Assembly: GCA_951406725.2 (NCBI GenBank)
Contig: OX597820.1
Span: 80,724,001 to 80,788,000 of the forward strand
Origin: Octopus vulgaris
Taxonomy: Eukaryota
Reading direction: 5' to 3'
Length of the DNA stretch: 64,000 nt
Of the stretch, positions 4,615 to 64,000 are shown piece by piece. Under the pieces are notes generated by a model, which saw only the letters and a list, made by a program, of their open reading frames with translations, searched no databases and was not told where the DNA came from. How positions within the stretch are numbered: the first letter of the stretch is position 1; each line of letters begins with the position of its first letter. The position numbers were made by a program, and so were the translations under genes.

Positions 4615-4619
4615 GTAAT

Positions 4620-4855: not shown

Positions 4856-4912
<57 letters not shown>
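4620..4912 (+). repeat. Compound microsatellite (TTC)n(TCC)n(TTA)n immediately after the exon 1 donor
   Basis: Directly visible. Confidence 0.97.
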
Positions 4913-4914
<2 letters not shown>

Positions 4915-4917
4915 AAC

Positions 4918-35611: not shown

Positions 35612-35989
35612 GTAATATCAAAAGAAAAAATGGATGAAATTGCAAGAGACCAGAAAAAGGCTCACAGTGACGCCGATGCTGAATACCATGAGAGAACGAA
35701 AATGAAGGAAACCCTGAAGAAAAAAGCTGAAGAAAAACGTAAACAAGAAGCTTTGGAAAAGAGAAGACGAATGGAACTACAAATAATGGAAGATGGCGAA
35801 AAGAAACAGATAGAAGAAAGGTTAGACTTTGAAGAAGCTGGTAAAACATTATCAAGCAGCGACAGTACAGCTCGACGTCTGGAAGAAGAACGGAAGAAAA
35901 GAGAGGAAGACAGAAAGAAAAAAGATGAGAAAATTAGAAAAAGAGAAGCTGACATTATTCAGAAAAGAGATTCTCGTTCTCCTGCTACT
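35612..35989 (+). CDS. Coding exon 5, E/R/K-rich charged helical linker
   Basis: Acceptor ttcctgtttctag, donor ACT|gtgagt, 378 nt, phase 0-0. Confidence 0.88.
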
Positions 35990-42363: not shown

Positions 42364-42537
42364 GTTCAAAATCTGCAGATGCTTTGCGTGATCAGTTGAA
42401 GCTGGCAATTAAACAGAAAAACAAAGTCAATTTAGAAAGAGCTATTGCAGAATGCGAAGCGGCTAAATTACCAGAAATTGAAGCTGATCTCTACCAAGCT
42501 AAATCCTTTCTCAACTCTCTCGATAGTGGACGTCCAG
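42364..42537 (+). CDS. Repeat exon R1 (GSKSADALRDQLKLAIKQKNKVNLERAIAECEAAKLPEIEADLYQAKSFLNSLDSGRP)
   Basis: ttttgcag| ... G|gtaaat, 174 nt, phase 1-1. Confidence 0.9.
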
Positions 42538-42966
42538 GTAAATTTTCCAATGGAATTTATTGATATATTTTATACTTTGTGGTGGCAATGCGACACGTTA
42601 TAAGAGGTCCTCCTTGAAAGACTCGTTATAACATAACCGCTCATATTTTTCTATGCTGGTAGTTTTACCTGATAAACCTATACTGTTTCATGTTAACTAA
42701 AGAAAGTTTTTGATAATGATATAAATCTTATCACAGAAGCCCAGGATACTGTTATGGATATTCAAGAATTAATGAGAATCAAGATATCGTATTTTGGTCC
42801 AGCAAGATAAATGTACAAAATCAACAGAAATCTACCGTACTGTGCAGGAGCCAGCAAATATGGAGCAGTGTTTACAGGATAGTGTAGCAAATGGAGAAAG
42901 CAAATGGGATAGTGTTTACAGACAATCTTAAAAATTCAGACTACATAAGACCCTATAGTTCTAGAT

Positions 42967-43225
42967 CAATGGTTCCCAAAGTGGCAGTACTGCCCTCTTG
43001 GGGGCGGTGAAAAGACGTTGAAGAAAAGTGGGATGACAATGGGGTGGCCTAAATGGGGTGATACATGTAAAAAAACATCTTAATAGGTAAATTAGGTTTA
43101 AGTTTTATTTGTGAAATACAGCTGTTTTGAATTTGCTGCAGAAAGTGTTCTATATTTGTGGTGGGAAGGGAAATGTGGCCTGGGTGCCAAGGGGACGACA
43201 GCCTGAAAAAGTTTGGGAACTACTG
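42967..43225. mobile_element. hAT (Charlie-like) MITE
   Basis: TIR caatggttcccaaa / tttgggaactactg. 8-bp TSD ttctagat / ttctacat. Confidence 0.82.
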
Positions 43226-43984
43226 TTCTACATAAATAAAGTCTGGAGAGAATTGGAGATATTAAAGTTTCTCAATTTTTTGAGGTGTTCGTTTTTATGT
43301 TCGTTCAGAGAAAACTTTGGTGGTTTTTTTTTTACAATAAAAAGGATGTTTACATTTTCGAATATCCCGATAAAAAGGAACAGAAAAAAAGGAAGGTAAA
43401 ATTTTTTCATAGAAAATTGTAGACGAAGTTTTTGAAATTTACTGGAGATAATCTTTTGTCTGTCGGACAGAGAAAACTGTAGTTTTCTTGGAATAAAGAG
43501 CATGTTTACATTTTCGAATACTCAGTGGGGAGGGAAATGATAGGTATTCACAGATGTAGATATTATGGGTTTTAAAGCTGATTGTTTATGTGTTCGAAAG
43601 CTGTAGACATGTAAGTTCCTTAACTTAGTTTGAGGGAAATTCAAAATACTCACAGGAAACTGTAGATATTCCAGTCTTTTAGAGTTATTTTTCAGTTGTC
43701 CTATTGGGTTCTATCAGTGTTTCTGTGTCTTCAGCTACTGACAGATAAGAGCTGAGAAGAACACGTCCAGCCGCTGTCACGTTTTATTATTATTATATTC
43801 TTTCGGAGTCGATAAATTAAGTTCCAGTGAAACATTGGAGTTGATGTAATTGACTACGCTCCTCCTCCAAATTTGAGGCCTTGTACCTCCAGTAGGAAAG
43901 ATTATGATTATTATTATTATCATTACTATTATTATTATTAATAATATTTATAGGATTAAGGTAAATCCTCCAGAAGATATAGAA

Positions 43985-44180
43985 GCAAAAAAAAAAGAAG
44001 AGTGCCATTGTCATCAAGTGAACGATATTTCGATATCTCGTGTGGAGGAGTTATCTCAATCCTATAAATTTTAACCAAAATGAAGTAGATTGACACGTTT
44101 ATTTTTTGAACCTGTGGAAGACACATGAGATGTCGAAATATCGTTCACTTGATGACAATGGCACTCTTCCTTTTTTTGCT
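43985..44180. mobile_element. Short foldback/MITE with ~55-bp inverted arms
   Basis: gaagagtgccattgtcatcaagtgaacgatatttcgatatctc pairs with gagatgtcgaaatatcgttcacttgatgacaatggcactcttc. Confidence 0.75.
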
Positions 44181-44204
44181 ATTATTATTATTATGATTAT
44201 TATA

Positions 44205-44248
<44 letters not shown>

Positions 44249-44543
44249 CATTATTATTATGAAGCATTTCGTCCGCCTTTATATTCTCAGGTCAAAATCC
44301 ACCAAAGTCGACTTTGCCTTTCATTCTTTCGGAATCGATAGATTAAGTATCAGCGTATTCGACTAGTCCCCTCCTCCAAAATTTCAGGCCTTGTGCCTTT
44401 AGTAGAAAGGATTATTATTACTTTTATTAATAAACGTTTCGTCCGTCTTTATTGTTAGTTTTATTACTATAGCCTCGGGCCGATCAAAGCTTTGTCAGTG
44501 GATTTGGTAGACCGAAACTGAAAGAGGCCCGTCATATATATGT

Positions 44544-44585
<42 letters not shown>

Positions 44586-45473
44586 GTTTGTGTGTCTGTG
44601 TTTGTACTCTCGCCATCGCTTGACAACCGATGTTGGCGTGTTTACGTCTCTGTAACTTAGCGGTTCGGCAAAAGAAACCGATAGAATAAGTACTAGGCTT
44701 ACAAAGAATAAGTACTGGGGTCGATTTGTACGAGTAAAGCTAGTGCCCCACCATGGTCACAGTCAAATGACTGATACAAAGAGAAAAAAAAAAGGAAAAA
44801 GAATAAGCATTTCGTCCGTCTTTACATTCTGCTGAGGTTGACATTGCCTTTCATCCTCTCGGGTTCGATAAATTAAGTCGACTTTACCATTCATATTTTC
44901 GGGTTCAATGAAATAAGTACCAGTTGAACACTGGGGTCGATATAGTCGACTCATCCCCTACCTCAAAATTGCTGCCCTTGTGGCAAAATTTGAAACTATT
45001 ATTATTATTGTATATCTGAGTTTTGCTTTGTATTTGTACAAATTGATTCCAAGTCTCAGCCAGAGACCTCAAGAGACAACACGATAGAAGTTGGTATTAT
45101 GCCTTGGGTGTCATGTATTTGGTTTTGTACACAGTATTGTTCTAGAGGATGTTTAAGAAAGCATAAGAAAATTATGAGCTTGTTTTAAAATTTGAGATTA
45201 CATAGACAGTATTTTATGTAGGATATGGGCAGTTCTCTTGAGCACTATCTTTTGAATTTCTGCTATTTCCACTCACAAGACTTCGGTCGTACCCAAGGTG
45301 CCATTCAGTGGGACTGAACCCACAACCATATGGTTAGGAAGCAAGCTTCTTACCACACACCCACTCCTGCGCCTACAAACCACACAGCTACTCCTGCACC
45401 TATCAGTACTTTTTTTTTATAAAAAAGAATATTTCTTCGAAATATTTAGTTGATTTTATTTTAATTCTTTCAG

Positions 45474-45647
45474 CTTCTGCATCTCCAGAAACTTTGCGCG
45501 ACCAATTAAAACGAGCTATTATCCAAAAGGACAAACCCAATCTTGAGAAGGCGATTGAAGAATATGAAGCTTCTGGCATCCGTTCTGCAGATGATGATTT
45601 GCAGAAAGCCAAATGTCTGCTGGAAACACTTGGAGGAGGCAGAGGTG
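45474..45647 (+). CDS. Repeat exon R2 (ASASPETLRDQLKRAIIQKDK...LETLGGGRG)
   Basis: ttctttcag| ... G|gtaagt, 174 nt. Confidence 0.9.
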
Positions 45648-48600
45648 GTAAGTCATGATTTTGCTTTCACTGAAAGAAGTTGACATAAGTAAAAAAAAAT
45701 AAATAAATAAAATAAAAAAAAAAAATTAAAAAAATATTTCTTTAAGAAAATGAAATCGTAAATTTTATGCGAGTTGATTGAAACTTTAAATGTCGTCTTC
45801 AAAAAGGCAGGCAGAGATGCTGGATAATAGTCTTTGAGATTTACTTCAGATATATATATAAGGATTTTAGAAATAAGGCACAGCTGCTGGATTTCGTTTT
45901 GCTTATATTGAATTGAAAATGTTATGTAAATGAAAATGGCTTACTATTCTAGAAATGGGGGCAGAGCTGCTGGATTTCTAGAAATTGTATCCATTGAACA
46001 TTAGGGAATAAAGTGGTATATTGGTTCCATTATTTGCAGGACAGATGAGCTATTGATTAGATATTGGAGATATTCATTTTAGTTGTTGAAATTCAATGAT
46101 TAAGAAAAAGACAACCGAAATATTTTTTGTCAGTATTATATTAAATTAAGGAGGTAAAACCACTGGAAACATATATAAAACAAAACACATCACGTGAATC
46201 ACACACACACACACACAAACATACAATTTGAGTGATATACAATTCTTTGGTTTCTTGAAGTTTTATTGTTTACTACTTGTGTTTCTGAACGATATTCCAA
46301 CTTCCTATTTGGTAATTGATATAGGTTTTTTAACTTTTTGTTACGATTCCGTGGTTTACATAAATAAAAATATAAAACCTTATTACGATAGCAGAAGGAA
46401 ATATATACAAAAGTTACACTCACACATACACACACACATTGCATTGAAAACACAAATATATTCTAGTTTTTACTTTTGCTGATTATCTTTTATATTTTCG
46501 AATATGTCACTCGCAATTTCTTTGGAATAACCTTTTGAGAACACAATAGGAAAGGCCAAGTGGCTTATAAATTCTGTTATAAGTGTTAAAGTTGTAACTT
46601 CATGACTTCAGTTCTTACATTGAATATGCAACCCAAGTACTTCTTAAGCTCACCATTCACTTAAAACATGAAGTAATTTCAATAAAATACGTCATAACAA
46701 AAACCAAAACTAAAGTAAGATACAACTTTTTTTCATATTTTTTTTCATGTGTCCGCCATAGTTCAACATTTATAAGGTGTACAGAATTTCCAACCAAAAT
46801 CTATAAATTAACATCCGCGATTGTACCTCCATAAAATACGTGTAATGCTTAGGGAAGTAACACAAATAAAAAACTGGTGGTTGTTATGCTAGTTTTGTAG
46901 ACGGTGGTGGTGACGATGGAGTTGATAATAGTGAATGAATACGAGAAGGAGAGAGAGAGAGAGAGAGAGAGAGTGTGCGTGTGTGTGTATGTGTGTGTGT
47001 GTGTGTGTGTGAGTAATACAGGGCGTACTAAGAACTGAGAATCAGTGTGACCTCACTGCATCTTTAGTCATTCCATTTTTCTGTCTTTCTCTTTCTACGT
47101 TCGTTTGAAGTGGCTGGGAGCTCATTTTAGTATATAAAGTAACGAGATCATTACTTGAAAGTATTATACCGATGCAAGAATGAAAAAATACAAAAAAAAT
47201 TGTTGTATCAAACTCCGTACGAGGCGTAGCTCATTATATAACTCCATCCTTCTTTAAATTCTTAAAATTTCTTATTGATAGATAGCACTCTACTTTACTA
47301 TAACTGCAATTCCCTAAATGTCTGATCTGATTATTTGATGGTCCTAGTATCCCCCACTACTTCTGTCCCTCTCCCCTGGTCATTTGCCCTTAGCTAGAGA
47401 TTCCTGCATCCCGATCCTATACCTGAGTGGCTTGTATGCTTTTATTTTTATTTTTCCTTCACCCTTGCGTTTCATTTATCTATTATTTCCTTTTGTTTTA
47501 CGACATCTCCATTACATCTCACTACTCTAAACCTGCTATAATAAATTATCTCCTACACCCCCCCTCCGGTCAACTTATGATTTGAGCTAGCAGACTCTTT
47601 CTCACACGGATCACTGACTTCAGATATCATATTACACACTTTCAAGAACTACATTCTTAACTTAAACGGCCAACATAGTTGGTCAATCTCCCATTGCAAA
47701 TAAATGAAGGAAGAAAAATGTTACCGTTAGTTGAAATGGTCCTTTATTTTCGTTACAACCATCATTACAAAGTAAGATACCCCTTCTTTGGGTTGTAGTT
47801 ATACACATGTTAGTTATTGTTCTGCTATCCCTTCTGTAGGTAGTGAAATTCATCTATGGTTGACTACTATAGGGAGAAGACAGTCAGACAATTAGAAAGA
47901 GTAAGAGCTCTGTGGTCACGCGTTTACAAGCCATAAGTGAAGGGAGAAAAATAGATGCCCTTTGACCAGAGACCAAGCAACCAAAGAGGGAGAACAGATC
48001 TGGGGTTCTGTATTTATATTTTTATTATCTAAATTAGGACAGGATGAACAAATGCTCTTTCCTCTGTAATCTGCCTTAACTCAAGTCTGACTCTCTCCTT
48101 CTCGTATTCATTCACTTACTCTCAAATTTCCTAGTGCAGAAAGTGAGCCTTTGGTAAATTGTTTTTCCGAGGTAGGTGGAGCTACGTGGAATGATAATTA
48201 TGTTTTGTGTATGTACGTCAGGGAGGCTGATTCATTAAGAAACCAGTAAGAAACCAGTATATCTGTTGCAAGTGTTGATGAAAAATACCATACTATGAAA
48301 TTTTTAGAGTTGTCAATCGTGTAAAACTTTGTTGTCAGGTGTATTCAGTTTAGGTATATTAGATTCAGGTCATGGGATTGTTTTTAAAGACATTTGGTTA
48401 TCGTTGTGTTTTAGAGTTCACAAAAGAAACACTGGTCTTACAAACATACGTGTCTTATATCCTCCTCTATCAGTCCATCTGTACCCCTACCTCCTAGACG
48501 TATATAGACAATTATCATCACATATAGCTCTACCTACTTCAGAAGAAAACAACTTGCCAAATACTATGTAAAACCGAAATGAACCGAAGTGTACCATAAT

Positions 48601-48809
48601 CCAACGAAGGCTACCAGGCCGAAACTTCGAAGTGACCCCTCTTCTTGTAAAAGTATAATAAATGTGTATCCCACAAAAAGTATTCAATAATTCTTCAGTC
48701 TGTGCTAAATTGTTTTTACTATGGATATAAACACACACACGTTCGCGTGCGCGCACGGACACACACACACACAAAACGTGCATAAACGTCTTCTAAAATA
48801 CCGTTTTCA

Positions 48810-49425
48810 TCTCTATATCTATAAACGGCAAAATGTCTGTGTCTTCGTGTCCTTTATACAAATCCACAGTTTTTTCACGTTAAAGGCTCGCATTTTCTAT
48901 GGGCTTTCAAAACTGTCTGAGGGTGGTCAGGAAGATCTTTTCATTTCCCCAGTCACCCTAGAAAGTCATTAAAAACATCGATAAACCGACCCCTTATGCA
49001 CATAAGTTATGGGCATATCTATTCAGAATCGCTAAAACATAGAAATTTGTACGCAGTGCGTGCGTACAGCTAGATACGTCAATAGACTACCAGCTGTTTG
49101 GACGGAGATAATTTTACTCTTGATTAAGCGGAGATAATTTTACCCTTGACAGTTGAATGCGCGTGCGCATTTACAGACAGCGCATTTTTGTTTTGCGAAG
49201 ACGTGTTATCATGTGTTTTGGCTTTTAAATGTGCACGCTTCTTTTATTTGAGAAATGCAGGGGATAATTAACGAGTTAGATCAAGTGAATGACAAGAGAG
49301 CGGGATTTTCATGAAAGACCAAATATGCTTGATATGCTATCATTTCTTAAGTATGCCATAAAACGACCCGGCAACGAACAACAAGCACTAGCACTAGACC
49401 CGGCGACACCGGGTCATATTGCTAG
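48810..49425 (+). mobile_element. Non-autonomous Helitron
   Basis: A|TCTCTATATCTATAAA 5' end. 3' hairpin gacccgg-cgaca-ccgggtc followed by CTAG|T. Confidence 0.75.
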
Positions 49426-49914
49426 TTATAATTATACGTTTGTAGTGAAAGAGCGTGGCTTAGTGGTTAGGGTATTCGACACACGATCATAAGATCGTGA
49501 GTTCAATTCACGGCGACGTGTTGTGTTCATTGAACAAGACACTTTATTTCAGAATAATAACTGTATTGCAAAGGACCAACATTGGTACACTCTGTGTCAC
49601 GCTGAATCTCCCTGAGAACGAGAACTACATCAAGAGTGCACGTGCCTGTGCAGTGCTCAGCAGCTTGCACGTTAATTTCACGAGCAAACTGTTCCGTTGA
49701 TCGGATCAACCAAAATCCTTGTCGTCGTAAGCGACGGAGTGCCAGTTTTTTTTTTTTATAGATTTGTATGTTCCACGTTCAATTTAACAGATAAAGGGGA
49801 AAACTCAAGTGTATGTTTATATGAAATGTTACTACATACCAGTTTAAAACATTTATATTTCATCAAGTTATAATTGATTCTGTTTATTTCAAGCATTAAA
49901 TTTTTTGTTGTCAG

Positions 49915-50088
49915 GAATTAAAACTCCTGAATCGCTACGAAAAAATTTGGAAACTGCTTTAAAGAAAAAAGATGTAAACCTTTTGGAACAAGCAATAAAT
50001 GAATGCAAGAGTAGTGGCTTTGCAGAACTTGATTCTCATATAGACCCTGCTCAAGAAACATTGGAGAACTTGAAAAATAACCTGAGAG
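49915..50088 (+). CDS. Repeat exon R3 (GIKTPESLRKNLETALKKKDV...LENLKNNLR)
   Basis: ttgttgtcag| ... G|gttcgt, 174 nt. Confidence 0.88.
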
Positions 50089-51146
50089 GTTCGTTACCTA
50101 CTTAGTCATTCATCAGTTATAAATATACGATGCTACTTTCGAATATAATATCGCAAATTTCTAATTGTATTTGATATCTGAACACAGCATTAGTATAGAA
50201 TTTAAGGAAAACACCCTTCGTTTTAAAATAAACTTTCTGTACTCATTTTTATCCAGTAACGTTGTAACTAATTGTAAAATATATAATAAATGTGTGTTAA
50301 ATTTCGCTGAAAAAGTTGTTTTGTAGTTAAAGCAAGTGAGGATTAAATTCAGTAAATTTAGGGTATCTGAAATATTTCAGACATCAACTTAAAATACATT
50401 TACACGAATTGATTTTAATTCAAATAGTAGATGATAAATAACCTGAAACATTTTTCAAAAGTTAGGCTCAACCATTTGTGAAATTGTGAAAATTTTCAAA
50501 TGTATCCGGCGTATGCTAGACAAGTGAAAGCTCGCTACGTATAGTCGAGATCATATATTTGCAATTACTCTACACGATTAGTTTTGCATAAATTCCGTTT
50601 CTCCAAATATTATCAATGAAATTCGTTGTAAGTTAACATAGGTTAGGTAAGCAGTTATGCGAAAAGGAAAATTATTGATAATCTGCAAAGTAAACATTGT
50701 GTCAACGAAGAGCTTCTCTCCATTGTACGTTGAACAGATGTAATATCTTCAGAAATGAATTGAAACAAAGCTTCGATTCGTATTGTTAGGGCCGTCCATA
50801 ACATTCACACCTACACACACGCGCATGTTACACACATACACACACACACGCATATTACACACATACACACACACACGCGCATATTACACACATACACACA
50901 AACACACGCATGTTACACACATACACACACACAAACACACATATATGAGAGTGTGTATATTTATTGATTGATAAATATAGATATATATTAAAAACCTAAA
51001 TATTATCTTAAGTCGAGAATGAAGTAAGCATCTTACATTAAATCTAATTATATTAGATGATAACGCAAAACTGAAGTATTGTTTAATAGTTTCTAGTTTA
51101 CACTTGTTTGTGATCATTATTACTAATGCATATCTAACACCAAAAG

Positions 51147-51317
51147 GAAATACTCTCAAAAACCTGCAAAGTCAAATTCGCACAGCGATAAAACACAAGA
51201 ATAAACCAAGACTAGAAAGACTTGTTGATGAGTGTGAATCATCAGGATACGAAGAGCTACAACCGGACATTTTAATTGCAAAGGAAATTTTGGAAGAGCT
51301 TGGAAACACGCGTGAAG
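51147..51317 (+). CDS. Repeat exon R4 (GNTLKNLQSQIRTAIKHKNK...LEELGNTRE)
   Basis: Weak acceptor ctaacaccaaaag|, donor G|gttaga, 171 nt. The 5' boundary is less certain. Confidence 0.8.
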
Positions 51318-51341
51318 GTTAGACATTATAATCATAGTTCA

Positions 51342-51372
<31 letters not shown>

Positions 51373-51438
51373 TAAATGGCAGTTTATTGAGGGGTATTAT
51401 ATAACACCTTGCCATTTTGTGTTTGCGTGTATATATAA

Positions 51439-51475
<37 letters not shown>

Positions 51476-51822
51476 AATAGAGTAGCTAAAATCTGGGCTA
51501 CATATGTTTCATAGCGAGCAGAACCTCGGAAGTGGTAAATATTACAGGCTCTTCAGGCAAAGAGTATATTGATTAAGTGAAGTTTATATTATCGTTAGAA
51601 TGCCCATGTTAACACACGGAGCATTCGATATATATATACATAAGGATATCTGCTATTGCAAAGGTGATAATCAATTTGTTGAATGCAAATTAATAATGTT
51701 GTTAAAAGGCCAAATTCACTAACTTTCTATAATCGTTGTTACTCTTTAGTCACTTATACTTTTAAATCAAAGAAAGCTCATCGCAGCATCCATCGTTGTT
51801 TGATACAGCAATCTCTCGACTA

Positions 51823-52012
51823 TCGCAGGTGTAACGTTCCAAAATCCCTGCAATAGGTGAAAATACACGCAATAGAAACAGTATTGTTCTGTATATTTTT
51901 AAAAAATTATTTTTATAATTTGTATATATTTATTTTATTATGAATGCAAAACAACACCACAGAGGAACCGACGTAAGTTTAAATAATAAACCGCGATATG
52001 GCGAGAGATCCA
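51823..52012. mobile_element. pogo/Tigger-like MITE relic
   Basis: ta|cagcaatctctcgactatcgc ... gcgatatggcgagagat are imperfect inverted ends. Confidence 0.5.
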
Positions 52013-52358
52013 TTCCGTCCAAATTATTTAATCTTTTGAGAGCAGAAATGATGTAGTTGCGAATTAACTGTCTTGTAGTAAATATGTGTGTGTGAATGCT
52101 TGCATTTTATTTATATACTTCTGGATATGTCATGCCGATGATTTTTAAAAAGAATGAAATAGTGTTATACTTATTACTTCGTAATCAGATAGCGACAAAA
52201 ATAAATAATAAACAAAGAAATAAAAATGAATTCTTCGCAACTTTTCTTTATAATTTCTGAATTTCAAATTCAAAGTTCTAACCCCACCAAATATTATGAA
52301 GAAATGAATATTTTCCTTGTATTACAGTATACTACAAGTATGTATGTATGTATGCATG

Positions 52359-52418
<60 letters not shown>

Positions 52419-52914
52419 GATCTTATAAGAAACTTAAATGCGACATTCGGCTTTGGATACTATTTTCCCTACACCAAATAACATAAATGGCTGGACATGT
52501 TCATTTTATCGTTCCACTCTTAATTTATTGGAATGCGGCAATGTTGAGGCACTGTCTTCAAAGATTTAGTCGATGAAGGTGATCCACGTGCCTATACTTT
52601 TAAGTCTGGCGTTTATTCTATCGGTGTTTCATTGCCAAATTACTGTGTTGCAGTAAGCAAACGAACACCGGTTTTTAAGCGTTGAGGCACAGTTTACATC
52701 TTCAAATTTTACTCACAAAGCATTGATTAAGGCTGGACATTTGCCCAAGAAGCCTCGCAGTGGGACGAAACCCGAAACCACGCCGTTGTGAAGTGCACTT
52801 CTCAGCTATGCAGTCATACCTTCGCCTATACATATATAAATACACTTACATTAGTTTCCTTATAATAAGGATTGATAATTAATTTTTAAAGCTCATTGAC
52901 TTTCATTTTCTCAG

Positions 52915-53088
52915 GAGCGAAATCTCCGGATCTCTTTCGTGACCGGCTCAAATCATCATTAAAATATCAAAATAAGCCAAGAATGGAGAACGTGATATCT
53001 GAAATGGAAGGAGCCAAATATCCCGAGTTATTTAACCAACTTCATGAAGCTAGAGCATTTCTGGATGCGTTATCAGAGGGTGATAAAG
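52915..53088 (+). CDS. Repeat exon R5 (GAKSPDLFRDRLKSSLKYQNK...LDALSEGDK)
   Basis: ttttctcag| ... G|gttagc, 174 nt. Confidence 0.88.
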
Positions 53089-53455
53089 GTTAGCAAATGC
53101 TCTAAAAAACGCCAACAACGTTCAATGTCGTGTATTAATCTGGTTAATACACTTGTCCTTGAGACAAGTGCATTATGAAAATGATTGTGTATTCATGAAA
53201 ATGAATCTAATTTGTTGTAATGATAATTAAAATGACTATATTAATCTTTGATATGTAAGTATCTTTGTATCTTTGCTGTAAAAGTTCAACTTTAATGCAT
53301 GCATAATCATAGCGGTGTAATCAAATATACAATAAACTGTCTTTCGATGGCATGGTTTAATCTTTTCACACACATAGGTTATAGGCTAAACGTATTTAGA
53401 TATCAACTTTGATATTGTATTCAAGAGTTGATAAAATGTGTTATCTGGTTGATAG

Positions 53456-53626
53456 GATTATCGGTTGAATATTTGCGTGAAGCCCTGAAGAAAGCAATGA
53501 GAAAAAAAGATAAAGAAAGTCTAGAAGAAACCATTGAAAAATGCGTAGAGTTCAATTATCCAGAGTTAGAATCTGAAATACACCACGCTAGAGATATTTT
53601 GGAACTTATGCGCACTGGCCGAGCAG
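53456..53626 (+). CDS. Repeat exon R6 (GLSVEYLREALKKAMRKKDK...LELMRTGRA)
   Basis: tggttgatag| ... G|gttaga, 171 nt. Confidence 0.84.
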
Positions 53627-54450
53627 GTTAGAATTTCTTTTGTACATTAAAATAAAGAAAAGTATTTATATGATTACTATGTAAAGTAATCATTTGGATA
53701 AATGATTGTAAATTATCTTTAAGAGATCACTGTTAAATATATTTAAATCAACGTATGTATTTCTAAAAATACTTGCCCTCGCTAATGTCAAGAAATTTAT
53801 TTAAAATTTGTTTTGTAAACCGAATATTACGTGTGTTTATGTGTGTGCGTGTGCATGAGCATGCGGGAATACATACACGCATGCATACATACACACACAG
53901 ACATATGGTGATATAAATATATGTTTGATATGCTAATACTGACAGTATACATTTGAATTATCGTTTTTGTTAATTCTTTTCATTTTACTAATGGCGGTTT
54001 TTCTATCGTCTGTGTGTCGGAATCCAAATTCCTCATCGATTTGTGATGGTGTGTGAGTTGAGCGTATGTTGTGCAAAAAACTAAGGGTAATTTTACAATT
54101 TGTTTGACCGCTCCTCTCAGAATGCATACTCAGTTTTCTTTCACAATGAACATAGAATACGTACGGAATATATATATCTGTCATAATTTACCGTCTGTTT
54201 GTAAGGAGTAACTTAATTTATATATCTACATTTTAACAGCTTGTCATTAATTAAACAATATATTTTCTCTTCTCTATAAATGTCTGTATGCATGAATGTG
54301 TGTATGTATATTTATATATTATATCAATTAAATGTTGTAGACTTCATCATTTTTTGAGAGTTTGGCAACGTGTAAATTTATCAATCAGTCTGTCTGTCTG
54401 TTTCCTTTTGTGTAATTGTCTCTATCCCTCTCTCTTTCTCTCTCCCTGTT

Positions 54451-54485
<35 letters not shown>

Positions 54486-54818
54486 CTCTCTCTCTCTTCT
54501 TCAATTTGTCTTTTTCTCTGAATATGTCTGTGTATGCCTTTATCCTAGTTTTTGCATGTCTTTCTGTCTGTCTTTGTGTATATCTCTTTGTCTTTGACTG
54601 TATCTCTTTATGTTGTCAGTTACTTTCTTCCTGTTTGTCCGCGTCTCTCTGTTTACTCGTCTGTGTCTTCTTTCTTTCTTTCCTTCCTTGAAGTAAATAT
54701 GTACAGTAATATAGATTTACAACATTTCTGATATATAGTAAATAATACATAGAACAGATATAATTGAGAACAAGGAAACTGTTTTCATATCTGATATATG
54801 GAATTCCTAATCCACCAG

Positions 54819-54992
54819 GTTCTAAATCACCATTTGCTTTGCGGGAACAACTGAATAAAGCGATAGATCAAAATGACATTGATGCTTTACAGAAAACTAT
54901 TGAAGAGTGTGAAGAAACCGGATATGCCGAGCTTGGATACGACTTGAGTCGAGCGAGAGATAAATTGCATAGTTTAGGATGTGGTAAAGGAG
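54819..54992 (+). CDS. Repeat exon R7 (GSKSPFALREQLNKAIDQNDI...LHSLGCGKG)
   Basis: ctaatccaccag| ... G|gttagc, 174 nt. Confidence 0.88.
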
Positions 54993-55472
54993 GTTAGCTA
55001 TATTTTCTAGTATTTCTTACCTTTTAAAATACCTATTAGAAAATGCATTAGCATTCAGCAATTTTTTTTCTATCAAGTGGCATTACTGGAATTTTAAAGT
55101 GCATTAAAATTTGTAATTAATCAGCTAATTACAGACACAAGTTTGCAATAATGATAAAAGAATATTGTACTTTCTGATGACAGAAACAAAACAGACCTCG
55201 AAGTGAAGTTCTTAGCTGTGAGTTAATAGTGTCTTGAGATTTTACTAAAGCAGTTATCGATCATTTTAAATGTAATGAACTCTTTTAGTTTACCTTATAA
55301 ATATCCAACGCCACAGAACACATGGTAAAATATTAGGCATGCGAATCGATATGGTTCAATACGTAACGGCTTTCAAATAATTAACCTCAAGTGTCATGTT
55401 GATACGTTTACTTTCATTTAACTTTATGATTTATAGATAAAATGTTAAGCTTTGTTTCATTTTATCAAAGGC

Positions 55473-55515
<43 letters not shown>

Positions 55516-55905
55516 TGTATAAAGGAGCGTGGGTAAGGCCAGAACAATTCGAAGTAAATGCAAGGCAAATCCCCAAAAAACAAATACATGAATTAATAAT
55601 GTAGGCTTACCTTTCATTCAATATTTCGGGGTTATGACCTGATTTTCAAGAAATTAACGAATGTTGCCGACGTGCGTGTGTGTGAGCGTGTGTGGATTGG
55701 ACATGCGCGGATAGATGTTGCTATAGTAACCAACTAGCTTCCGGTAACCTTCTTCTGTTGTTGATATTTGATTTTCTTTGATGTATGAGGATGGCCCCGG
55801 ATGAATAACCCCCAAAATATTGCATGCAAGGGAAGTCTACATTAATTCAAATATTTGTTTTCTTGAGATTTGTTTTGTTCAGGCCTTACCCACGATCCTT
55901 TATAC
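55516..55905. mobile_element. MITE/foldback between (TA)n tracts
   Basis: gtataaaggagcgtgggtaaggccagaacaa pairs with ttgttcaggccttacccacgatcctttatac. Weaker inverted similarity extends ~100 bp inward. Confidence 0.7.
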
Positions 55906-55992
55906 GATATATTCTACACAATGCTTCACAGTAATTACTCCCATATATATATATATATATATATACGATTCTTAATTGATTCCATTAATCAG

Positions 55993-56166
55993 GTACACAA
56001 ACACCTGATTCGTTTCGTGAAAAACTAAAATCCGCAATGAAGTTAAAAGAGAAGCAAAAACTAGAAGAAGCGATTAACGAATGTGTAGCAGCGGGATTTT
56101 CGGAACTTCAAACAGATATCCATGAAGCAAGGGATATGTTTTATGTTCTTGGTGGAGGTGTTGGAG
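55993..56166 (+). CDS. Repeat exon R8 (GTQTPDSFREKLKSAMKLKEK...FYVLGGGVG)
   Basis: ccattaatcag| ... G|gtacaa, 174 nt. Confidence 0.88.
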
Positions 56167-56553
56167 GTACAACAGCTATCATGATTTTCTTTCATACAAT
56201 TTGTATGTGTTGGCATAATTTTAAGGGAAAACAAAATTATTTAATTTATGCTCTTTTCTTTCTAAAGTCATCTTAGTTAATTATTAAGTCGTGTCTCAAA
56301 ATATGTTTTTTGTTATAACATTACTCAGTATTGTTTTTGTCAAATTTCGTGGACTATAAAATCACCAAATTTATAATTACCAAATTTGTAATGATAACAC
56401 AGCTTTAAATGAATTCAGTAATTCGGCATATTCTAATATTTGTAGCATGTAAATCAATTTTCAGAGTACTAATGTTTAAACAATCCTTACGCATACAGTA
56501 AATAATTTTAGTAAGCTTTGATGGTTGTCAATGTAATGTAATATAATTGCTAG

Positions 56554-56727
56554 GTATTGAGACTCCCCAGAACTTACGCGAAAAATTGAACTCAGCAATA
56601 GAAAAGAAAAATGTTGAAGATCTTAAAAGTGTTATTGCAGAATGTGAACAGATTGGTTATCCAGAACTTGGAGCGGAATTGTCTAAGGCTCGTGATACGT
56701 TGGAAAGCTTAGGTGGTGGCCGAGGAG
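56554..56727 (+). CDS. Repeat exon R9 (GIETPQNLREKLNSAIEKKNV...LESLGGGRG)
   Basis: aattgctag| ... G|gttagc, 174 nt. Confidence 0.88.
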
Positions 56728-57072
56728 GTTAGCTTAAAGATTTTCAATACTGTGTTTTGAATTGACATTAAAAGAAAAAAAAAGTAAAAGTGGTTATAAA
56801 TTTCTTTTTTGGTGGCTATTTCCTGGATAACAAATTGAATATTACTTAAAAGTTAGAAATTTGTAAAGAAGTTTATTAAATAAAATGTTCAAATGAAGAT
56901 AAAAATTTCAAGCGTAAACAGTAGTACGAAAGATTGGATTTTATCGTAAATAATATCTAAAATTATTTACTATTAAATACGTTAGAAAAATGTTAAGATA
57001 TGCATATTTTGATAAAATTTATAGTGCATTTGCTGTAATATAATCCTCAAGATCTATTACTTTGTAAATCAG

Positions 57073-57246
57073 GAATCAAATCTCCTGATGAATTACGTAA
57101 GAAATTAATGGCGGCAAGAAACAATGACGATAAGTCAGAGCTTGAACGAATTATTCTTGAATGCGCTGCAGCTGGAATGCACGAATTAGAAGCTGATATA
57201 CAAGAAGCAAGAGATAGCTTATATTTGTCAGGAGCAGCATTGCAAG
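57073..57246 (+). CDS. Repeat exon R10 (GIKSPDELRKKLMAARNNDDK...LYLSGAALQ); absent from the ORF track
   Basis: ttgtaaatcag| ... G|gtcaga, 174 nt, aligns to the repeat consensus. Confidence 0.87.
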
Positions 57247-57795
57247 GTCAGATAATATATAATAATGAACTTATTTATTTGCTTTGATTTGTGGTTCATG
57301 AATTATTGCTGAAAATAGAACTGTCGAGATGTTTGGAAAAAAAAAACAAAAACAAAAGAACATCTTTATTACTTTTTATTCTAGTATTCATATTTTGAAA
57401 TTTCAATGATCTATGTTCATGCTAAAGTACTTTTATATGCGGACAGTACTTTCATGATAAATGATTTTGTTACATAATTTCCAAATGGACCATTGTGAGA
57501 CATATATTACAGACAACACTGTCGAAAACTATGGGGCGCCCTACAAATAAAAAAAAATTCAATCGCGTTTTAGTTCATTCTGTTGGGGATCGATATATAA
57601 TTTTTAAAATGTATATATATTCCAATTTTATATATGATACCATACATATTTTAAACATTTCCCAATGTACAGACTCATACATGCCCACTCAATCATTTAA
57701 CTATGCGTCTTTATAGTAAAAATAAATCGTAAATTAAAAAGAATATTATTTGTTATTACAAAATTTATATAAATTTGTGAACGTTTCCTGTTCAG

Positions 57796-57969
57796 GTCAG
57801 AACTATGCTGAAGCATTACGTCAACGCCTGCAAACTGCAATTACAGACCAGGATAAGAGAGCATTGGAAACTTTAATCTATGAAAGTGAAAATGCTTGTT
57901 TACCAGAACTTGGTTTTGAGGTTTACAAAGCCAGAGAAATGCTTGAAAGTTTAGGAGGTGGTTCTGGAG
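57796..57969 (+). CDS. Repeat exon R11 (GQNYAEALRQRLQTAITDQDK...LESLGGGSG)
   Basis: ttcctgttcag| ... G|gtattg, 174 nt. Confidence 0.88.
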
Positions 57970-58194
57970 GTATTGAGCAACATTCTATTTTCAAAATTGA
58001 GTGATTGGTTTGACATCTTATTTGTAGTTCTCATATGTTATTAAAATCCTTGCACCATTCAACTATCTGCTGATGTATCGGATGAAACAACTGATTAAAA
58101 TAAATTATATGATTATCAATTAAACTTAAAATTAGTAAACAATAACCGTAATAGTATCCAATTTATGACAACAAATTCTAATAGTGTTTACGGT

Positions 58195-58287
58195 GATATA
58201 TGTATATATGTACGTATGTATATATTTATATGTGTATATCTATATATGTATATATATTTATGTATATATATATGTATATATATATGT

Positions 58288-58330
<43 letters not shown>

Positions 58331-58387
58331 CATGTATATATACATGTATATATATGTATATCTATATGTATATATATACATATATAT

Positions 58388-58445
<58 letters not shown>

Positions 58446-58658
58446 ATATATATATATGTATATATATACATGTATATATATGTGTATATATAGATGTATA
58501 TATACATGCATGTATATATATGCATATATAAATATATACATACATATATATATATGTATATATATTTATATGCATATATCTATATACATACATATATATA
58601 TATATTGAGATGTATATATGTATATATGTGTATATGTATATGTGTATATGTATATATT

Positions 58659-58690
<32 letters not shown>
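58195..58690. repeat. Long degenerate (TA)n/(TATG)n microsatellite (similar tracts at ~590-860, 12865-13020, 13550-13845, 14850-15340, 26810-27305)
   Basis: Directly visible. Confidence 0.97.
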
Positions 58691-58692
<2 letters not shown>

Positions 58693-59166
58693 TTCGTAGC
58701 CTGCTCTCCTTACAGTTTCGTCCGGTTACACTTGAGACTGCTCAAATCTGTCTGACTCCAATTATCTAAGCTAAGAGCATTAAGTATTTAGGAAGATAGG
58801 AAGGGAATGTGTACGACAAGAAAGATAAAAAAAACTAAAAATACGAAGAAAATGTTACTCATTTACACATATACAAACAACAATAAAATAACAACAGGTG
58901 TCTTTCGACTAATAGAGACGAATCAAGTTGATCTGGCGTGTGTGGATTGAAAGCCTCGAGGCAGGAACGAGACCGACATTTTTTTGCTGACATTCGTAGC
59001 CTTGTCATCAAAGTGCAAGGATACTTGCCATTAGCAACTGATGGTTTTTTTCCCCCAAGAGCCAAGTCTCCCCCTACCCTAGCTTCAAGTGAAATTGTAT
59101 TATATTTAGTACATGTGTTTATACTCTAAAGCTATCTCTTCTAATATGAAACGTTTTATTTCTCAG

Positions 59167-59514
59167 GATATTTATCTCCTGACATCCTTCGTAAGAAGCT
59201 TAAGGCGGCTAAAGAAAGAAAAGATATTGATGACCTAGGAAGAATTATAAATGAATGTGTAGCAGCTGGCATGCCGAAGTTAAGTTCCGACATCATTGAT
59301 GCCAGAGAGAGCTTAGATATTCTCTGTGGGGGAACAGGAAAGATGAAACCCTCCGAAATTTTGCATAATGAGCTAAGGGAAGCAATATCAAGTAAAAATA
59401 TAGACAACCTGAATAAATCTATTGATGAGTGTGAGGCTGCCGGTTATCTTGAATTAAGCCACGATTTAAAGAAAGCTAGAGCTACACTGGAATCGCTTGG
59501 TGGAGGTTATGGAG
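59167..59514 (+). CDS. Double repeat exon R12 (two 58-aa units, GYLSPDILRKKL...LESLGGGYG)
   Basis: tttatttctcag| ... G|gtgaga, 348 nt = 2 x 174. Confidence 0.9.
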
Positions 59515-60272
59515 GTGAGATAACTATCACGTGTTTCTCACTCGTAATTGTAATTCATGTTTTAAATGAAAATATATTTGGTACATAGTTACCCATTTCT
59601 TAACTTTGCTCATAGAAAAAACAGTGATGTGATTTTGTCACTTAAAAACAAGGAATATGAATGTGGAATATGGAATTTTTGATTAAACATGCATGATTTT
59701 TACAACGTATAATTAAAAATTGCCACTTAAAATTAATTAAATATTTCGCATGGTGACGAGCATTATCGAATTGCTTTAATTAAATAAATGGAATTAAATG
59801 CTCTATTAGCAAAACCTGATTTAACACTGTATGGCAGTGAACACTATATAACAATTCTGTTGTTACCATTTTAGCCAACAATGTCGGCAGACTCATATTG
59901 TAGTTACTGTATCTACTGCTAACTGAAGGCATTTGAAATACCTTATGTAACTAATACTCTTGGGATAAGCAGAGGAAGTATATCCCCAATTCTATTCCTC
60001 TCAGATCTGAAGACTAGTGATTGCGTAAATATCAATGCTATTGATGACGTTACATTGGTGGAAGTGGTGGAAACATTAGAACGCCGAACAATAAATTACA
60101 GTATTTTAGTACTGTCAATGTCGCTTTTGCATTTAAACCTTGCCATCGTGATTTACTCTGCTTTTACACCGTCGAGGGTGGGATGTGATCGTGATTTAGT
60201 ATTCACTAGAAATATTGAACTTATATACTGTCAAATGTCATAAATATCATTCATATTATTTGATTTGTCCAG

Positions 60273-60446
60273 GTTCCAAGACACCAGATATTTACCGGAA
60301 TAAAATAAGAACTGCAATTAAAGAAAAAGATAAATCGGCATTGGAAAAAGCCATTAACTCTAGCATAGCTTTAGGCATGCCAGAGTTGGATTCTGAAATA
60401 CTCCAAGCGAAAAAAGCACTAAAGCGTTTGAAACAAGACTTTAAAG
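60273..60446 (+). CDS. Repeat exon R13 (GSKTPDIYRNKIRTAIKEKDK...LKRLKQDFK)
   Basis: atttgtccag| ... G|gttaca, 174 nt. Confidence 0.88.
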
Positions 60447-61223
60447 GTTACATAAGCAGTCTTTTCATTTATATAACACACCAAAATAATTAATGTGATA
60501 TTGCAACGTCTCCATATACCTACCTGCTTGCTTACCTACCTACCTACACAGAGTGTAGGACCGTTGATAAGATTCGAAAGGACAACTCTGTAGACTCGTC
60601 TTCTGTAGGCCTGTTTATTTATTACTTTCTTGTTCACTTTATGAACGAGAAAAAAAGCTAAAAATTAAATTTAAAACTCATTTGTGAGTCGATTTCACTT
60701 GTAAAATCTAACGCGGGCAATTTAAGTTGTAGTGATTTGAGATATAATTAGATTCTTTAAACATTTAACTATTTAAAAAACAAATCATACCCCAAACAAC
60801 TTCTATAGGAATTTCACTGCTATTTAAAACGAAATGGCAATCCAATATACCATAGATAATTAAGATAGTATCACCTAAGATGCATCTTATTTAATGGTCT
60901 GGTTGCCATAAAGTTATTTGGTGAAACCTTTTGATTGGGTAAATCGCCAGCCCATGTTAGTCAATAGGTGTCACACATATCTAAGTTTTAAGATGAATTA
61001 CACGGTCAATTTCGTGTTTCTATGGTTTATACAAAGTTTAGCTCATGTTCGCAAGGCGATTACAATACGGACTAACGTGAGCATAGAGAGAAATATTCTG
61101 TGGTTCAATCAAAAGCATGAGAAATGATATAATGTTAGGTTACCTGTATATTTTTTATTTTCAGTTTACTCTATATTTTTGTTTTTCTTTTTATCTGTTT
61201 CTTTTATATTTTAAAAAAACTAG

Positions 61224-61397
61224 CACGTAAACCCGTTGAAATTCTTAGAAGTGAGTTACAAGAAGCTACGAGAAGCAAAGACAAATCAAATTTGGAAAAG
61301 CTTATTGGTGAATGTGAAATAGCTGAATATCCTGAATTAAGCATCGATCTATGTAAAGCGAGAGATGCCTTAGAAAGCTTAGGTGGTGGTCGTGGAG
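61224..61397 (+). CDS. Repeat exon R14 (ARKPVEILRSELQEATRSKDK...LESLGGGRG); absent from the ORF track
   Basis: Pyrimidine tract then aaaaaaactag|, donor G|gtcagg, 174 nt. Confidence 0.86.
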
Positions 61398-61808
61398 GTC
61401 AGGATGACAATGATAATTACTTTAAAAGCTTTACATTGTTCTGTATGAACATGCGATACGTTTCATGATTACTGTTTGATAGATATGTTATTAATTTTGG
61501 CTTGGATAACTGTTCTGTAACAAGATGAAATCAGTTTGCTTTCGATTTAATATCTTTTAAAAGATAACGATTTGTATAGATGATAATTTTGAAGTTCTTT
61601 AACTACTACCAGTCTCAATCCTTGCGCTGTCGTATATTCAATAATATATAAACATTAATCAGAAAAACATTATAAGGAAGCTACTTGGCTTGTTTATAAC
61701 TTCGTCTTGTTAGATAAGCATTCTCAAGAAGCGATTATTGTAATTATATCAGCATTTTAATTTTATAAAGCCATGTTATGACTCTATTAAAAAATTTATA
61801 TTCATCAG

Positions 61809-62156
61809 GATCTAAAACATCTGCTACTCTTCGAGAGAAAATTAAGACAGCTGAGGAAAGAAAAGATATTGATGGTCTAGAGAAATGTATAAACGAATGT
61901 TTATCGGCTGGCATGTCCGATTTGGATTCTGATATCAGTCGTGCTAGAGATAGTTTACATGTTCTACGTGGAGAATCAGGAACGGCGAAGAGCTCTCAAG
62001 ATTTACAGGACAAATTGTCGAAAGCAATTTTAAGTAAAGATAAAGAGAGCTTAAGCAAATCTATTGACGAGTGTGAAGATACTGGTTACCTTGAATTGAG
62101 CCCCTACCTGAAGAATGCAAGAGATATATTAGAAAGTCTTGGTGGAGGCCGTGGAG
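61809..62156 (+). CDS. Double repeat exon R15 (GSKTSATLREKIKTAEERKDID...LESLGGGRG)
   Basis: attcatcag| ... G|gttagc, 348 nt = 2 x 174. Confidence 0.9.
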
Positions 62157-62711
62157 GTTAGCATTATATATACATATTTAATTGTCACAGTACAAATATT
62201 TTGAAACCAAGAAATTTTTTCTTTGCCAGAATGAGGATGAACTTTTATTTGAATTTGTCACTCGATTTCCTTTAACAATTTTAAAAGAAGCAGCCAACAA
62301 ACACAGTCAAAATATTCATTTCTCAAGTTCACGGAACAATTGTACTGATTTCTATGAAATTCGAGTTTTTAGCACAGGATTGAAGTTTATACCTTGTACT
62401 AATTGTAGTTTATATCTTGTTATACTAATAATGGATGTATTTCAATCAGATATTTTCTTACTTTTCTAGCACTTTGAGTATATAATTCTTACCCTGTCCG
62501 TCCAGGTCCATGCATCTTTTAAGGCGTTTTTGTAACTGTGACCACGATATTTATATTTAAATGTTATTATTAAAGTATAAAACAATATAAATGAGCATGT
62601 CTACAAACGATTAATTGGCATATAATAAGTAATGTAGCATGCAATATATCTCAGTAATTACCCAAAACTTTAAAGAAATCATTCCGTTCATTGTTCCGCT
62701 TCTATTATCAG

Positions 62712-62885
62712 GCCTTAAGACACCGGAAATATTGCGTCAAAAACTTGAAAGTGCCAGGAATCAGAATGACAAACAACATTTGGAAAAAGTATTAAATGAG
62801 TGCATTGCTGCTGGTATGCCAGAACTGGACAATGATATTGAGTTAGCTAGGAATGATCTCGATTACATAGGATATGATGTTAGAG
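62712..62885 (+). CDS. Repeat exon R16 (GLKTPEILRQKLESARNQNDK...LDYIGYDVR)
   Basis: tctattatcag| ... G|gttaga, 174 nt. Confidence 0.88.
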
Positions 62886-63051
62886 GTTAGATCTGAAATT
62901 ACTATTGTCAAATATAAATATGAAATTATGCAAATATGTGTATACATATATATGTACGTACACACACACAAACATGCTCGTATACCATTTTAATCAATAA
63001 TAAATTGTTTTTGTTGTAAAACTTTGTGTGTATGCATAATGTGTGTGTGCA

Positions 63052-63104
<53 letters not shown>

Positions 63105-63499
63105 GTATGTGTAGATGGGAAGGTTGCAAAAGGTATGACAGCTTCAATAGGGGACAAGAATCGTTGACATGCCGGCACTGACTGGTCCTTATTAGTTTCG
63201 GATGTCACTTGGACAATGGTGGTTTTCAGTGAAGTTAATGTATAGGGAAGAAGTCAATTAATCTCCCTTTCAACAACCCTATGAACATTGTAGTCCATAG
63301 GATATGAATCTGGCGAGTTTGGAGGCCACAAGTTTAGTGATACATAATCGTAAAAATTGCCTTACATCTATTCTTGGGTTACATGTGCTTTGTGAGAAGG
63401 TGATGGGTCTTAATGAATAGTATATGGCTTTGCATTTTGCACTTCATTCAACTAGGGCTTAACAACTGTATCCAGCATCTCAACATTTTCAGAAGCATT

Positions 63500-63875
63500 A
63501 AATCTAACATCTTTACTACAATCCCAGAGTCAGTGAAAGACTTGGGGATCAGTATGTGAAATGACGTATCATTTCATATGCAAGATGGCAGCAAAGTGCA
63601 GAAAACTGGCAGGATGGATACTGATGTCCTTCAGGACAAGAGACCAAGAAACTGTTTTGACCCTGTGGAGAACCTTTGTTCTCAGCCGCCTAGACCACTG
63701 TTCCCAGTTATGGTCACCACATAGTGCCAAATTAACAGTGGAGCTTGAAGCAGTCGAACGCCGCTACACTAAAAAGATTGAAACAGCGCAGCGGATGAGC
63801 TATAAAGATAGGCTGAGAAAACTACAGCTTTACTCCCTGGAGCGAAGGCGTGAGGGATATGCAATAATATACGTG
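63500..63875 (+). mobile_element. CR1/Jockey-group LINE RT C-terminal fragment
   Basis: GWILMSFRTRD...LWRTFVLSRLDHCSQLWSPH...LEAVERRYTK...SYKDRLRKLQLYSLERRR. Confidence 0.85.
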
Positions 63876-64000
63876 ACGATCTGGCAGAAACGTTAGCACG
63901 CCGGATGAAATGCTTATCGGTCGACTTTGCCTTTCATTCTTTCGGGGTCGATAAATTAAGTACCAGTTGCGTACTGGGCTCGATCTAATCGACTGGCCAC

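Follow-up and report, generated by a model that had tools for sequence, protein, structure and literature searches.

An octopus KY-like gene with an array of 184 helical units and a dynein-MTBD-like end domain, possibly encoding a cytoskeletal tether of adjustable length

The stretch analysed here (the window) comprises 64,000 nt of the Octopus vulgaris genome (contig OX597820.1, positions 80,724,001 to 80,788,000) and forms the start of a gene encoding a KY-like head followed by a long array of helical units. We examined 424 kb of contiguous DNA; coordinates are those of the window, continued past 64,000, and the place on the contig (G000:C7) is obtained by adding 80,724,000. A single coding frame of 11,830 aa runs through all 191 exons, in the order transglutaminase-like domain, three KY-type Ig domains, charged coil, array, and a domain resembling the microtubule-binding domain (MTBD) of dynein. 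The open frame, together with gene models that join the parts, indicates that array, head and tail are one gene. The public proteins cited below by P number are all gene models titled 'uncharacterized' or 'hypothetical'. The head is encoded by six exons that total 881 aa, end in phase 1 and match the O. vulgaris model P0163 at 881 of 881 residues, in agreement with the core of about 880 aa given in a preliminary description of this DNA:

4375-4614 (+): exon 1 (ATG), N-terminus of the head; matched to P0163
22118-22347 (+): exon 2, transglutaminase-like domain with another residue at the catalytic Cys position; match to P0163 and structure alignment
30166-30568 (+): exon 3, transglutaminase-like domain with Asn in place of the His and the Asp retained; match to P0163 and structure alignment
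31988-33340 (+): exon 4, three KY-like Ig domains; PF23265 at E 5.7e-60 in three stretches
35612-35989 (+): exon 5, highly charged (55% D/E/K/R in the open frame), likely a coiled coil or single helix
41851-41890 (+): exon 6, an adapter of 40 nt leading from phase 0 to phase 1 ahead of the array; matched to P0163

Unit exons were enumerated as stop-free AG..GT intervals of phase 1-1, complemented by a profile search; a few exon boundaries were placed at the nearest in-frame AG or GT. The window holds twelve unit exons of 174 nt, two of 171 nt and two of 348 nt, all 16 of them AG..GT, in phase 1-1 and free of stops, and encoding 18 units, as had been counted before. With a profile built from 10 units, each of the 18 scored 51-97 bits, and no other window match exceeded 4.3 bits. 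Mean identity among the 18 is 39% (range 23-62%, over 47 core columns), which bears out the earlier remark that the repeats differ strongly from one another. The array and what follows it are listed here, with the unit type (A or B, see below) in brackets; the evidence for window units is enumeration and profile unless stated otherwise:

42364-42537 (+): unit 1 (B), donor GTAAAT, kept in all models covering it; profile and models
45474-45647 (+): unit 2 (B), donor GTAAGT, kept in three head-to-tail models; profile and models
49915-50088 (+): unit 3 (A), where the central exons begin; donor weak
51147-51317 (+): unit 4 (B), 171 nt
52915-53088 (+): unit 5 (B)
53456-53626 (+): unit 6 (A), 171 nt
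54819-54992 (+): unit 7 (B)
55993-56166 (+): unit 8 (A)
56554-56727 (+): unit 9 (B), modelled with AlphaFold; profile and AlphaFold
57073-57246 (+): unit 10 (A)
57796-57969 (+): unit 11 (B)
59167-59514 (+): units 12 and 13 (A+B), single 348-nt exon
60273-60446 (+): unit 14 (A)
61224-61397 (+): unit 15 (B)
61809-62156 (+): units 16 and 17 (A+B), single 348-nt exon
62712-62885 (+): unit 18 (A), last within the window
62886-64000 (+): intron past unit 18, the gene continuing beyond the window in contiguous DNA
64,360-233,460 (+): units 19-184, one per exon; profile
121,249-160,640 (+): 18-copy four-exon block, units 65-136; profile and block comparison
234,485-234,774 (+): terminal exon
235,904-236,095 (+): terminal exon
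237,600-237,878 (+): terminal exon, ending the gene with a stop

Inside the window the earlier count of 18 units is exact; the whole array is ten times larger, with 184 units scoring above 30 bits in 182 exons between 42,364 and 233,460 (191 kb). All 182 exons are in phase and without stops (32,088 nt in total; median intron 463 nt), and the three terminal exons encode a degenerate unit, the dynein-MTBD-like domain, a Ser-rich tail and the stop. In a repeat search of the O. vulgaris genome, the 150 scored matches among 181 candidates all fell at this locus, and the first exon past the array occurs once in the assembly. Two decayed unit exons carrying stops (200499 in L024 and 222884 in L026, continued numbering) were excluded from every count. 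When 103 units were scanned against Pfam none reached the gathering score (best E 0.0013, an unrelated family), and the repeat is, as previously suspected, not a named domain.

Two-class clustering of 116 units, with 68 extra copies of a near-identical block omitted, separated types A and B, each with its own set of invariant residues. The types alternate at 106 of 115 junctions (mean 57.9, maximum 77 in 10,000 shuffles), and mean unit identity at lags 1-4 is 0.39, 0.45, 0.38 and 0.46, with peaks at lags 2 and 4. Both fused 348-nt exons are A+B, the order also found in four of five unnamed two-unit frames. The block itself, units 65-136 (72 units), consists of 18 copies of a 2,235-bp four-exon segment: 17 intervals differ from one copy at 0-19 positions, the exons are identical across 17 copies, and three of the four exons lack a match above 75% in O. 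bimaculoides models. The copy number is given as assembled and may be misassembled or polymorphic. In the last copy, unit 134 (L020:5614-5784) carries 10 amino-acid-changing and no silent codons among 47 relative to its 17 identical sisters, and unit 136 of the same copy is unchanged; the divergence of unit 134 may reflect relaxed or diversifying selection, or patchy homogenisation. Neither the strict A/B alternation nor the end domain figured in the first reading.

Three public models run from head to tail: O. sinensis P0007 (6,596 aa, 94 units), O. vulgaris P0163 (2,069 aa, 16 units) and Argonauta P0004 (1,720 aa, 10 units). O. bimaculoides P0011 (5,242 aa, 87 units) reaches the tail without the head. 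In O. bimaculoides and O. sinensis the locus is annotated in pieces, and none of the models examined holds more than 94 of the 184 units. P0163 was rebuilt letter for letter from 25 of the gene's exons; its units are 1, 2, 50-57, 174 and 180-184, and those of P0004 are 1, 2, 166, 167, 174 and 180-184. Long consecutive runs are found in P0007 (units 1-38 and 41-57) and in P0001 (units 3-32). Units 174 and 180-184 are common to the four octopod models and units 1 and 2 to the three with a head; the central blocks kept differ between the four, with B-B and A-A joins across the skips. The eight flanking units alone would give a protein of 1,601 aa. Units 176-179, skipped by all four long models, are annotated as a separate small gene (P0013, P0005) in two species; unit 176 has a strong donor, and the four units are possibly an alternative block or 3' end.

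We then compared the splice signals of these eight flanking exons (units 1, 2, 174 and 180-184) with those of 106 central exons, extra block copies being omitted. GTRAG donors were found in 7/8 flanking but 3/106 central exons (p 2e-8), and 58 of the latter have a GTTAG donor. A unit is followed by one residue and then a stop in 46 of 101 distant fragments, to be compared with 60 of our 106 central exons; because the distant fragments end in this way, which is where a GT-TAG donor would put the stop, the GT-T donor seems to be conserved. Blocks with mostly weak donors are nevertheless included in models, namely units 50-57 in P0163 and 166-167 in P0004. GCATG occurs at +7 to +106 downstream of 20 of the 106 central exons (mean 7.1, maximum 14 in 100 shuffles), as compared to 57 of 861 deep-intron windows, 110 of 1,200 windows outside the gene and none of the eight flanking exons. 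Of the 10 central exons that the two short models include, 7 have GCATG downstream, to be compared with 13 of the 96 others (p 2.6e-4). The branch-point-like motifs ACTAA and CTAAT were not enriched over shuffles. Downstream GCAUG is assumed to promote exon inclusion through RBFOX proteins in muscle and brain, according to the accessible part of PMC11216089, and an octopus factor may act in RBFOX fashion on the GCATG-flanked exons.

Between paralogous units synonymous sites are saturated (pS 0.74-0.75) and pN is 0.30-0.38. A match above 75% in O. bimaculoides was found for 103 of the 116 units, with identities of 94.6% for central units, 91.8% for flanking units, 98.6% for the head and 97.6% for the end domain. 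In a set of 34 closely matching fragments taken from other samples, identity is 91% in the exon part and 65% in the translated intron flank (514 positions). Because of this difference, and because orthologues are about 94% identical, the comparisons indicate that the central exons are not dead. The view that this is an old array kept by selection is supported for the 116 units, on the strength of pN below pS and of the orthologues; it does not extend to the near-identical 18-copy block beyond the window, which is young.

By its head, the gene groups with the KY-like family: in P0163 Pfam named Transglut_core (PF01841, E 1.3e-5, 25.8 bits against a cut-off of 23) and, three times within exon 4, Ig-like_KY (PF23265, E 5.7e-60), in line with the KY/hillarin-like head proposed in the preliminary description. 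In an alignment to 9crn_A, a transglutaminase-like protein of solved structure, the match itself being weak (E 1.3), the Cys is replaced by Asn or Lys and the His by Asn, the Asp being kept; the putative Cys-His-Asp triad of vertebrate-type KY is not retained by this alignment. The His is retained in 5 of the 11 other relatives listed. Hillarin and LTD-1 carry an N-terminal LIM domain; Pfam named none in P0163 or P0004, the DNA upstream not having been searched for a LIM exon. According to the accessible parts of the sources, KY is a Z-disc protein for which enzymatic activity has not been shown (PMC6078408), the transglutaminase-like domain of Cyk3 is catalytically inactive, hillarin is found at the cleavage furrow, and hillarin and Cyk3 act in cytokinesis (PMC3718969). 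Because KY is at the Z-disc and hillarin and Cyk3 function in cytokinesis, we infer by analogy a cytoskeletal location for the octopus protein. The best solved relative of the head, found with a family profile, is flagellar FAP246 (PDB 7n6g_6E, E 5.6e-11), a match that we read as a second link of the KY-like family to microtubule structures. The paralogues P0177, P0178 and P0179 have the same head and charged segment (42-43% identity) without units; what closes them is an acidic region together with a hydrophobic stretch, the latter possibly anchoring them in a membrane.

The end domain of the chiton protein P0180 matched axonemal dynein 6 at E 2.7e-5, and that of abalone P0108 matched dynein at E 0.056. 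A five-protein profile including Argonauta matched dynein at E 9e-5, and at 0.006 dynein constructs of 130-141 aa, which we take to be MTBD constructs. A profile of five non-cephalopod end domains in turn found five octopod proteins at 43-46 bits, the best of 200 shuffles scoring 4.5. The octopod end domain is, on this indirect route through chiton and other mollusc relatives, judged homologous to the dynein MTBD. Chiton and dynein share a motif in helix 1 (an acidic residue, an aromatic residue and Pro-Pro). Pfam found no motor family in the gene's protein, and the Atlas gave no usable match for the end domain. TTLL11 was considered and rejected as a precedent for an 'MTBD-like' region, as in the accessible text of PMC12366701 the term refers to TTLL6/7 and not to dynein.

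AlphaFold2 predicted one unit, from a 103-unit alignment, as three helices (residues 4-17, 20-33 and 36-53; pLDDT 84, pTM 0.61). For eight units (P0012, 18 alignment rows) pLDDT was 81 and pTM 0.32; four linkers fell below 50 pLDDT and two A-to-B linkers reached 83-90. The three-helix beads on a string imagined earlier are thus what is predicted, and the models fit beads with loose joints, some stiffer A-to-B pairs and no fixed overall shape. Prediction of an A x B complex scored 0.32, against a mark of 0.34. Foldseek returned no match at E 0.001 or better for either one or eight units. With VIA-align the best rows were TPR-like segments (Z 7.8, rmsd 2.1, 56 aligned); no row reached Z 8, and the TPR-like rows tied with unrelated helical proteins. 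Neither TPR nor spectrin families were among the 25 of 39 weak Pfam families seen for the unit. A sequence search of the PDB with the unit profile placed designed helical proteins on top (best E 8e-4), and the Atlas returned unnamed eukaryotic clusters at 0.91-0.92 with low recognition.

A word-index search with the unit profile found six proteins; a full profile scan, which recovered the distant arrays, found 273 at E 0.001 or better, 150 of them being listed. Among 10 matches to the head, the closest named one outside the cephalopods is chiton P0180 (37% identity), in which two units precede the dynein-like end domain. Like the octopus gene, the mollusc KY-like proteins (chiton P0180, abalone P0108 and P0171, oyster P0172) have the order head, helical units, MTBD-like end. 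They differ in having 1-6 units (abalone 6, chiton 2, oyster one clear unit per module) spaced at 45-63 residues, no Gly-rich linker, no clear A/B split, and an end domain closer to dynein than the octopod one. In oyster P0172 (Saccostrea) the whole head-units-MTBD-like module is tandem-duplicated within one predicted protein. Among short fragments, 105 of 140 are less than 72% identical to any unit here, and of 127 single-unit fragments 123 can be assigned clearly to type A or type B; the nine distant fragments looked up were ENA or Logan records. We infer that one-exon-one-unit A/B arrays with weak donors also occur in other, more distant cephalopods. Weaker unit copies are numerous in protist proteins, of which two have myosin heads (reversed controls at most 4 bits); in the myosins P0021 and P0147 (a Rhodelphis protein and a cluster with a Breviolum member) the tails hold 12-19 similar helical repeats. 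Homology of the protist repeats is less sure, given their high composition bias.

Taken together, these observations are best explained by a cytoskeletal tether whose length would be set by regulated skipping of central exon blocks, a reading to which we give a probability of about 0.55. The starting point was likely a KY-like protein of ancestral molluscs that had a few helical units and ended in a dynein-like domain. In cephalopods it likely lengthened as a two-exon block, A-B, was duplicated time and again, and symmetric exons with weak donors would allow blocks to be skipped. The eight flanking exons (units 1, 2, 174 and 180-184) would always be used, for a minimum of 1,601 aa, and the weak-donor central exons would be included block by block, in some cases through an RBFOX-type factor, with 11,830 aa as the upper limit. 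By our own estimate, at 3-5 nm per bead, the chain could span from about 25-40 nm to 0.55-0.9 micrometre. The non-catalytic head would attach to one partner in the cytoskeleton, in the way that KY does at the Z-disc, and the end domain to another, presumably microtubules in the ancestral form and possibly something else in octopods. The length predicted to result from exon skipping ranges from 1,600 to 11,800 residues. That splicing tunes the length, as had been proposed earlier, is supported indirectly by the differing public models, donor strength and GCATG, that is, at the level of models and signals and not of reads. A search of sequencing runs listed 24, of which 20 contain part of the sequence and none is recorded as RNA. 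The more specific formulation of a titin-class coleoid giant of 1.3 MDa, with up to 184 beads between a pseudo-transglutaminase anchor and a motor-free dynein MTBD, with RBFOX block splicing over a seven-fold range and growth by tandem exon-block amplification, is tentative, and we would sooner expect it to need revision than to hold in every part.

Several points weigh against the tether. GCATG is equally frequent upstream of central exons (19/106), its reverse complement is raised too (14/106), and it was chosen post hoc as the top of many 5-mers in a scan. The donor test is partly circular because gene predictors favour strong donors; the 'always used' exon set is itself derived from gene models, and the blocks missing from P0007 and P0011 are possibly assembly gaps. 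The case for splicing is one made from gene models and splice signals. Pfam did not name the end domain, and in octopods the helix-1 motif is replaced, Arg standing in for the acidic residue and the prolines being absent; because of this replacement, microtubule binding may have been lost in octopods. The low pTM of the eight-unit model, obtained with an 18-row alignment, may mean shallow data and not flexibility. Finally, neither strict A/B alternation nor 94% conservation is an obvious requirement for a protein that serves as a spacer and nothing more.

In a rival reading, each A-B pair would be a binding site for a periodic partner, such as a filament subunit or a membrane protein, in the manner of nebulin on actin, with splicing setting the number of sites. 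The alternation at 106/115 junctions with identity peaks at lags 2 and 4, the A+B order of both fused exons and of four of five unnamed frames, the two A-to-B linkers at pLDDT 83-90, the class-specific invariant residues and the similar repeats that fill protist myosin tails would all agree with such a template. Alternation, however, also follows from duplication of a two-exon block, the models join B to B and A to A across skips, the stiff linkers lie partly where the alignment is deepest, and a partner is not known; we consider the template unlikely, though worth keeping in sight. Possibly, the array is instead a library of cassettes carried by a short form of 1,600-2,100 aa, the giant form being made never or rarely. 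Two of the three head-to-tail models are indeed short (10 and 16 units), central donors are weak, and a 35-kb transcript is without evidence here. The models nonetheless run through long consecutive stretches, unlike mutually exclusive clusters, and conservation is not lower in central than in flanking units (94.6% vs 91.8%); we regard this alternative as rather improbable.

That the array is a separate gene, a set of dead exons or largely an assembly artefact would account for the split annotations in O. bimaculoides and O. sinensis, the two dead remnants, and the near-identity of the 18-copy block, three of whose four exons lack a match above 75% in O. bimaculoides models. Against this stand the 182 of 182 exons that are stop-free and in phase, the joining of head, units and tail in the models of three species, their collinearity in chiton, abalone and oyster proteins, and pN of 0.30-0.38 at pS of 0.74-0.75; moreover, 116 units remain without the extra block copies. 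We regard this explanation as very improbable.

Literature searches on the gene, the repeat and the end domain found no description of them, nor of an array and MTBD-like domain on the KY family, subscription papers and supplements being outside the coverage; six gene and protein identifiers returned no papers. The accessible parts of PMC9258296 and PMC9699675 do not describe the gene, which proteome tables or the long-read annotation of the latter may hold; nor does that of PMC11431876, which lists a 'kyphoscoliosis peptidase' in skin mucus, which one being unstated. As to the surroundings of the head exons, a long run of trinucleotide simple repeats (4617-4950) lies directly past the exon 1 donor, and broken frames on the minus strand of head introns (19387-19887, 28387-28590, 15406-15597, 14272-14574 and 38826-39137) presumably represent integrase, Tc1/mariner transposase and LINE remnants, judging by their motifs.

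If the tether reading is correct, titin and nebulin would be joined by another giant structural protein of adjustable length, evolved independently in animals with muscles and neurons that are unusual in their mechanics and size. The repeat defined here is unnamed; other molluscs have it too, and the tails of protist myosins probably do. The molecular function of the KY-like family is unsettled, and the dynein-MTBD-like domain, found without a motor in a mollusc subfamily, points to microtubules as a candidate partner. The locus further allows a prediction of the constitutive and of the regulated exons.

Among known systems, KY, Drosophila hillarin, C. elegans LTD-1 and yeast Cyk3 share with the octopus gene the transglutaminase-like domain and the KY-like Ig domains; the octopus gene differs in the replaced Cys and His, and in the helical array and dynein-MTBD-like domain that follow. 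With the MTBD of the dynein heavy chain, the likeness is one of sequence over the whole domain, traced through mollusc relatives, but there is no motor and no antiparallel stalk: array units precede the octopus domain, and a Ser-rich tail and stop follow it. For TPR-like and other three-helix arrangements and for spectrin-type chains, the nearest likeness lay in the TPR-like rows of VIA-align (best Z 7.8), which did not stand above unrelated ones. Titin and nebulin are giant modular chains with symmetric one-repeat exons, super-repeats, block duplication and splice-dependent length. The octopus gene is like them in its symmetric one-repeat exons with a super-repeat pattern, its recent near-identical block duplication and its likely splice-dependent length. 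Its unit, in contrast, is a three-helix module and not an Ig, Fn3, PEVK or nebulin repeat, and its anchors differ. In design the gene is akin to titin and nebulin, but it is neither of the two.

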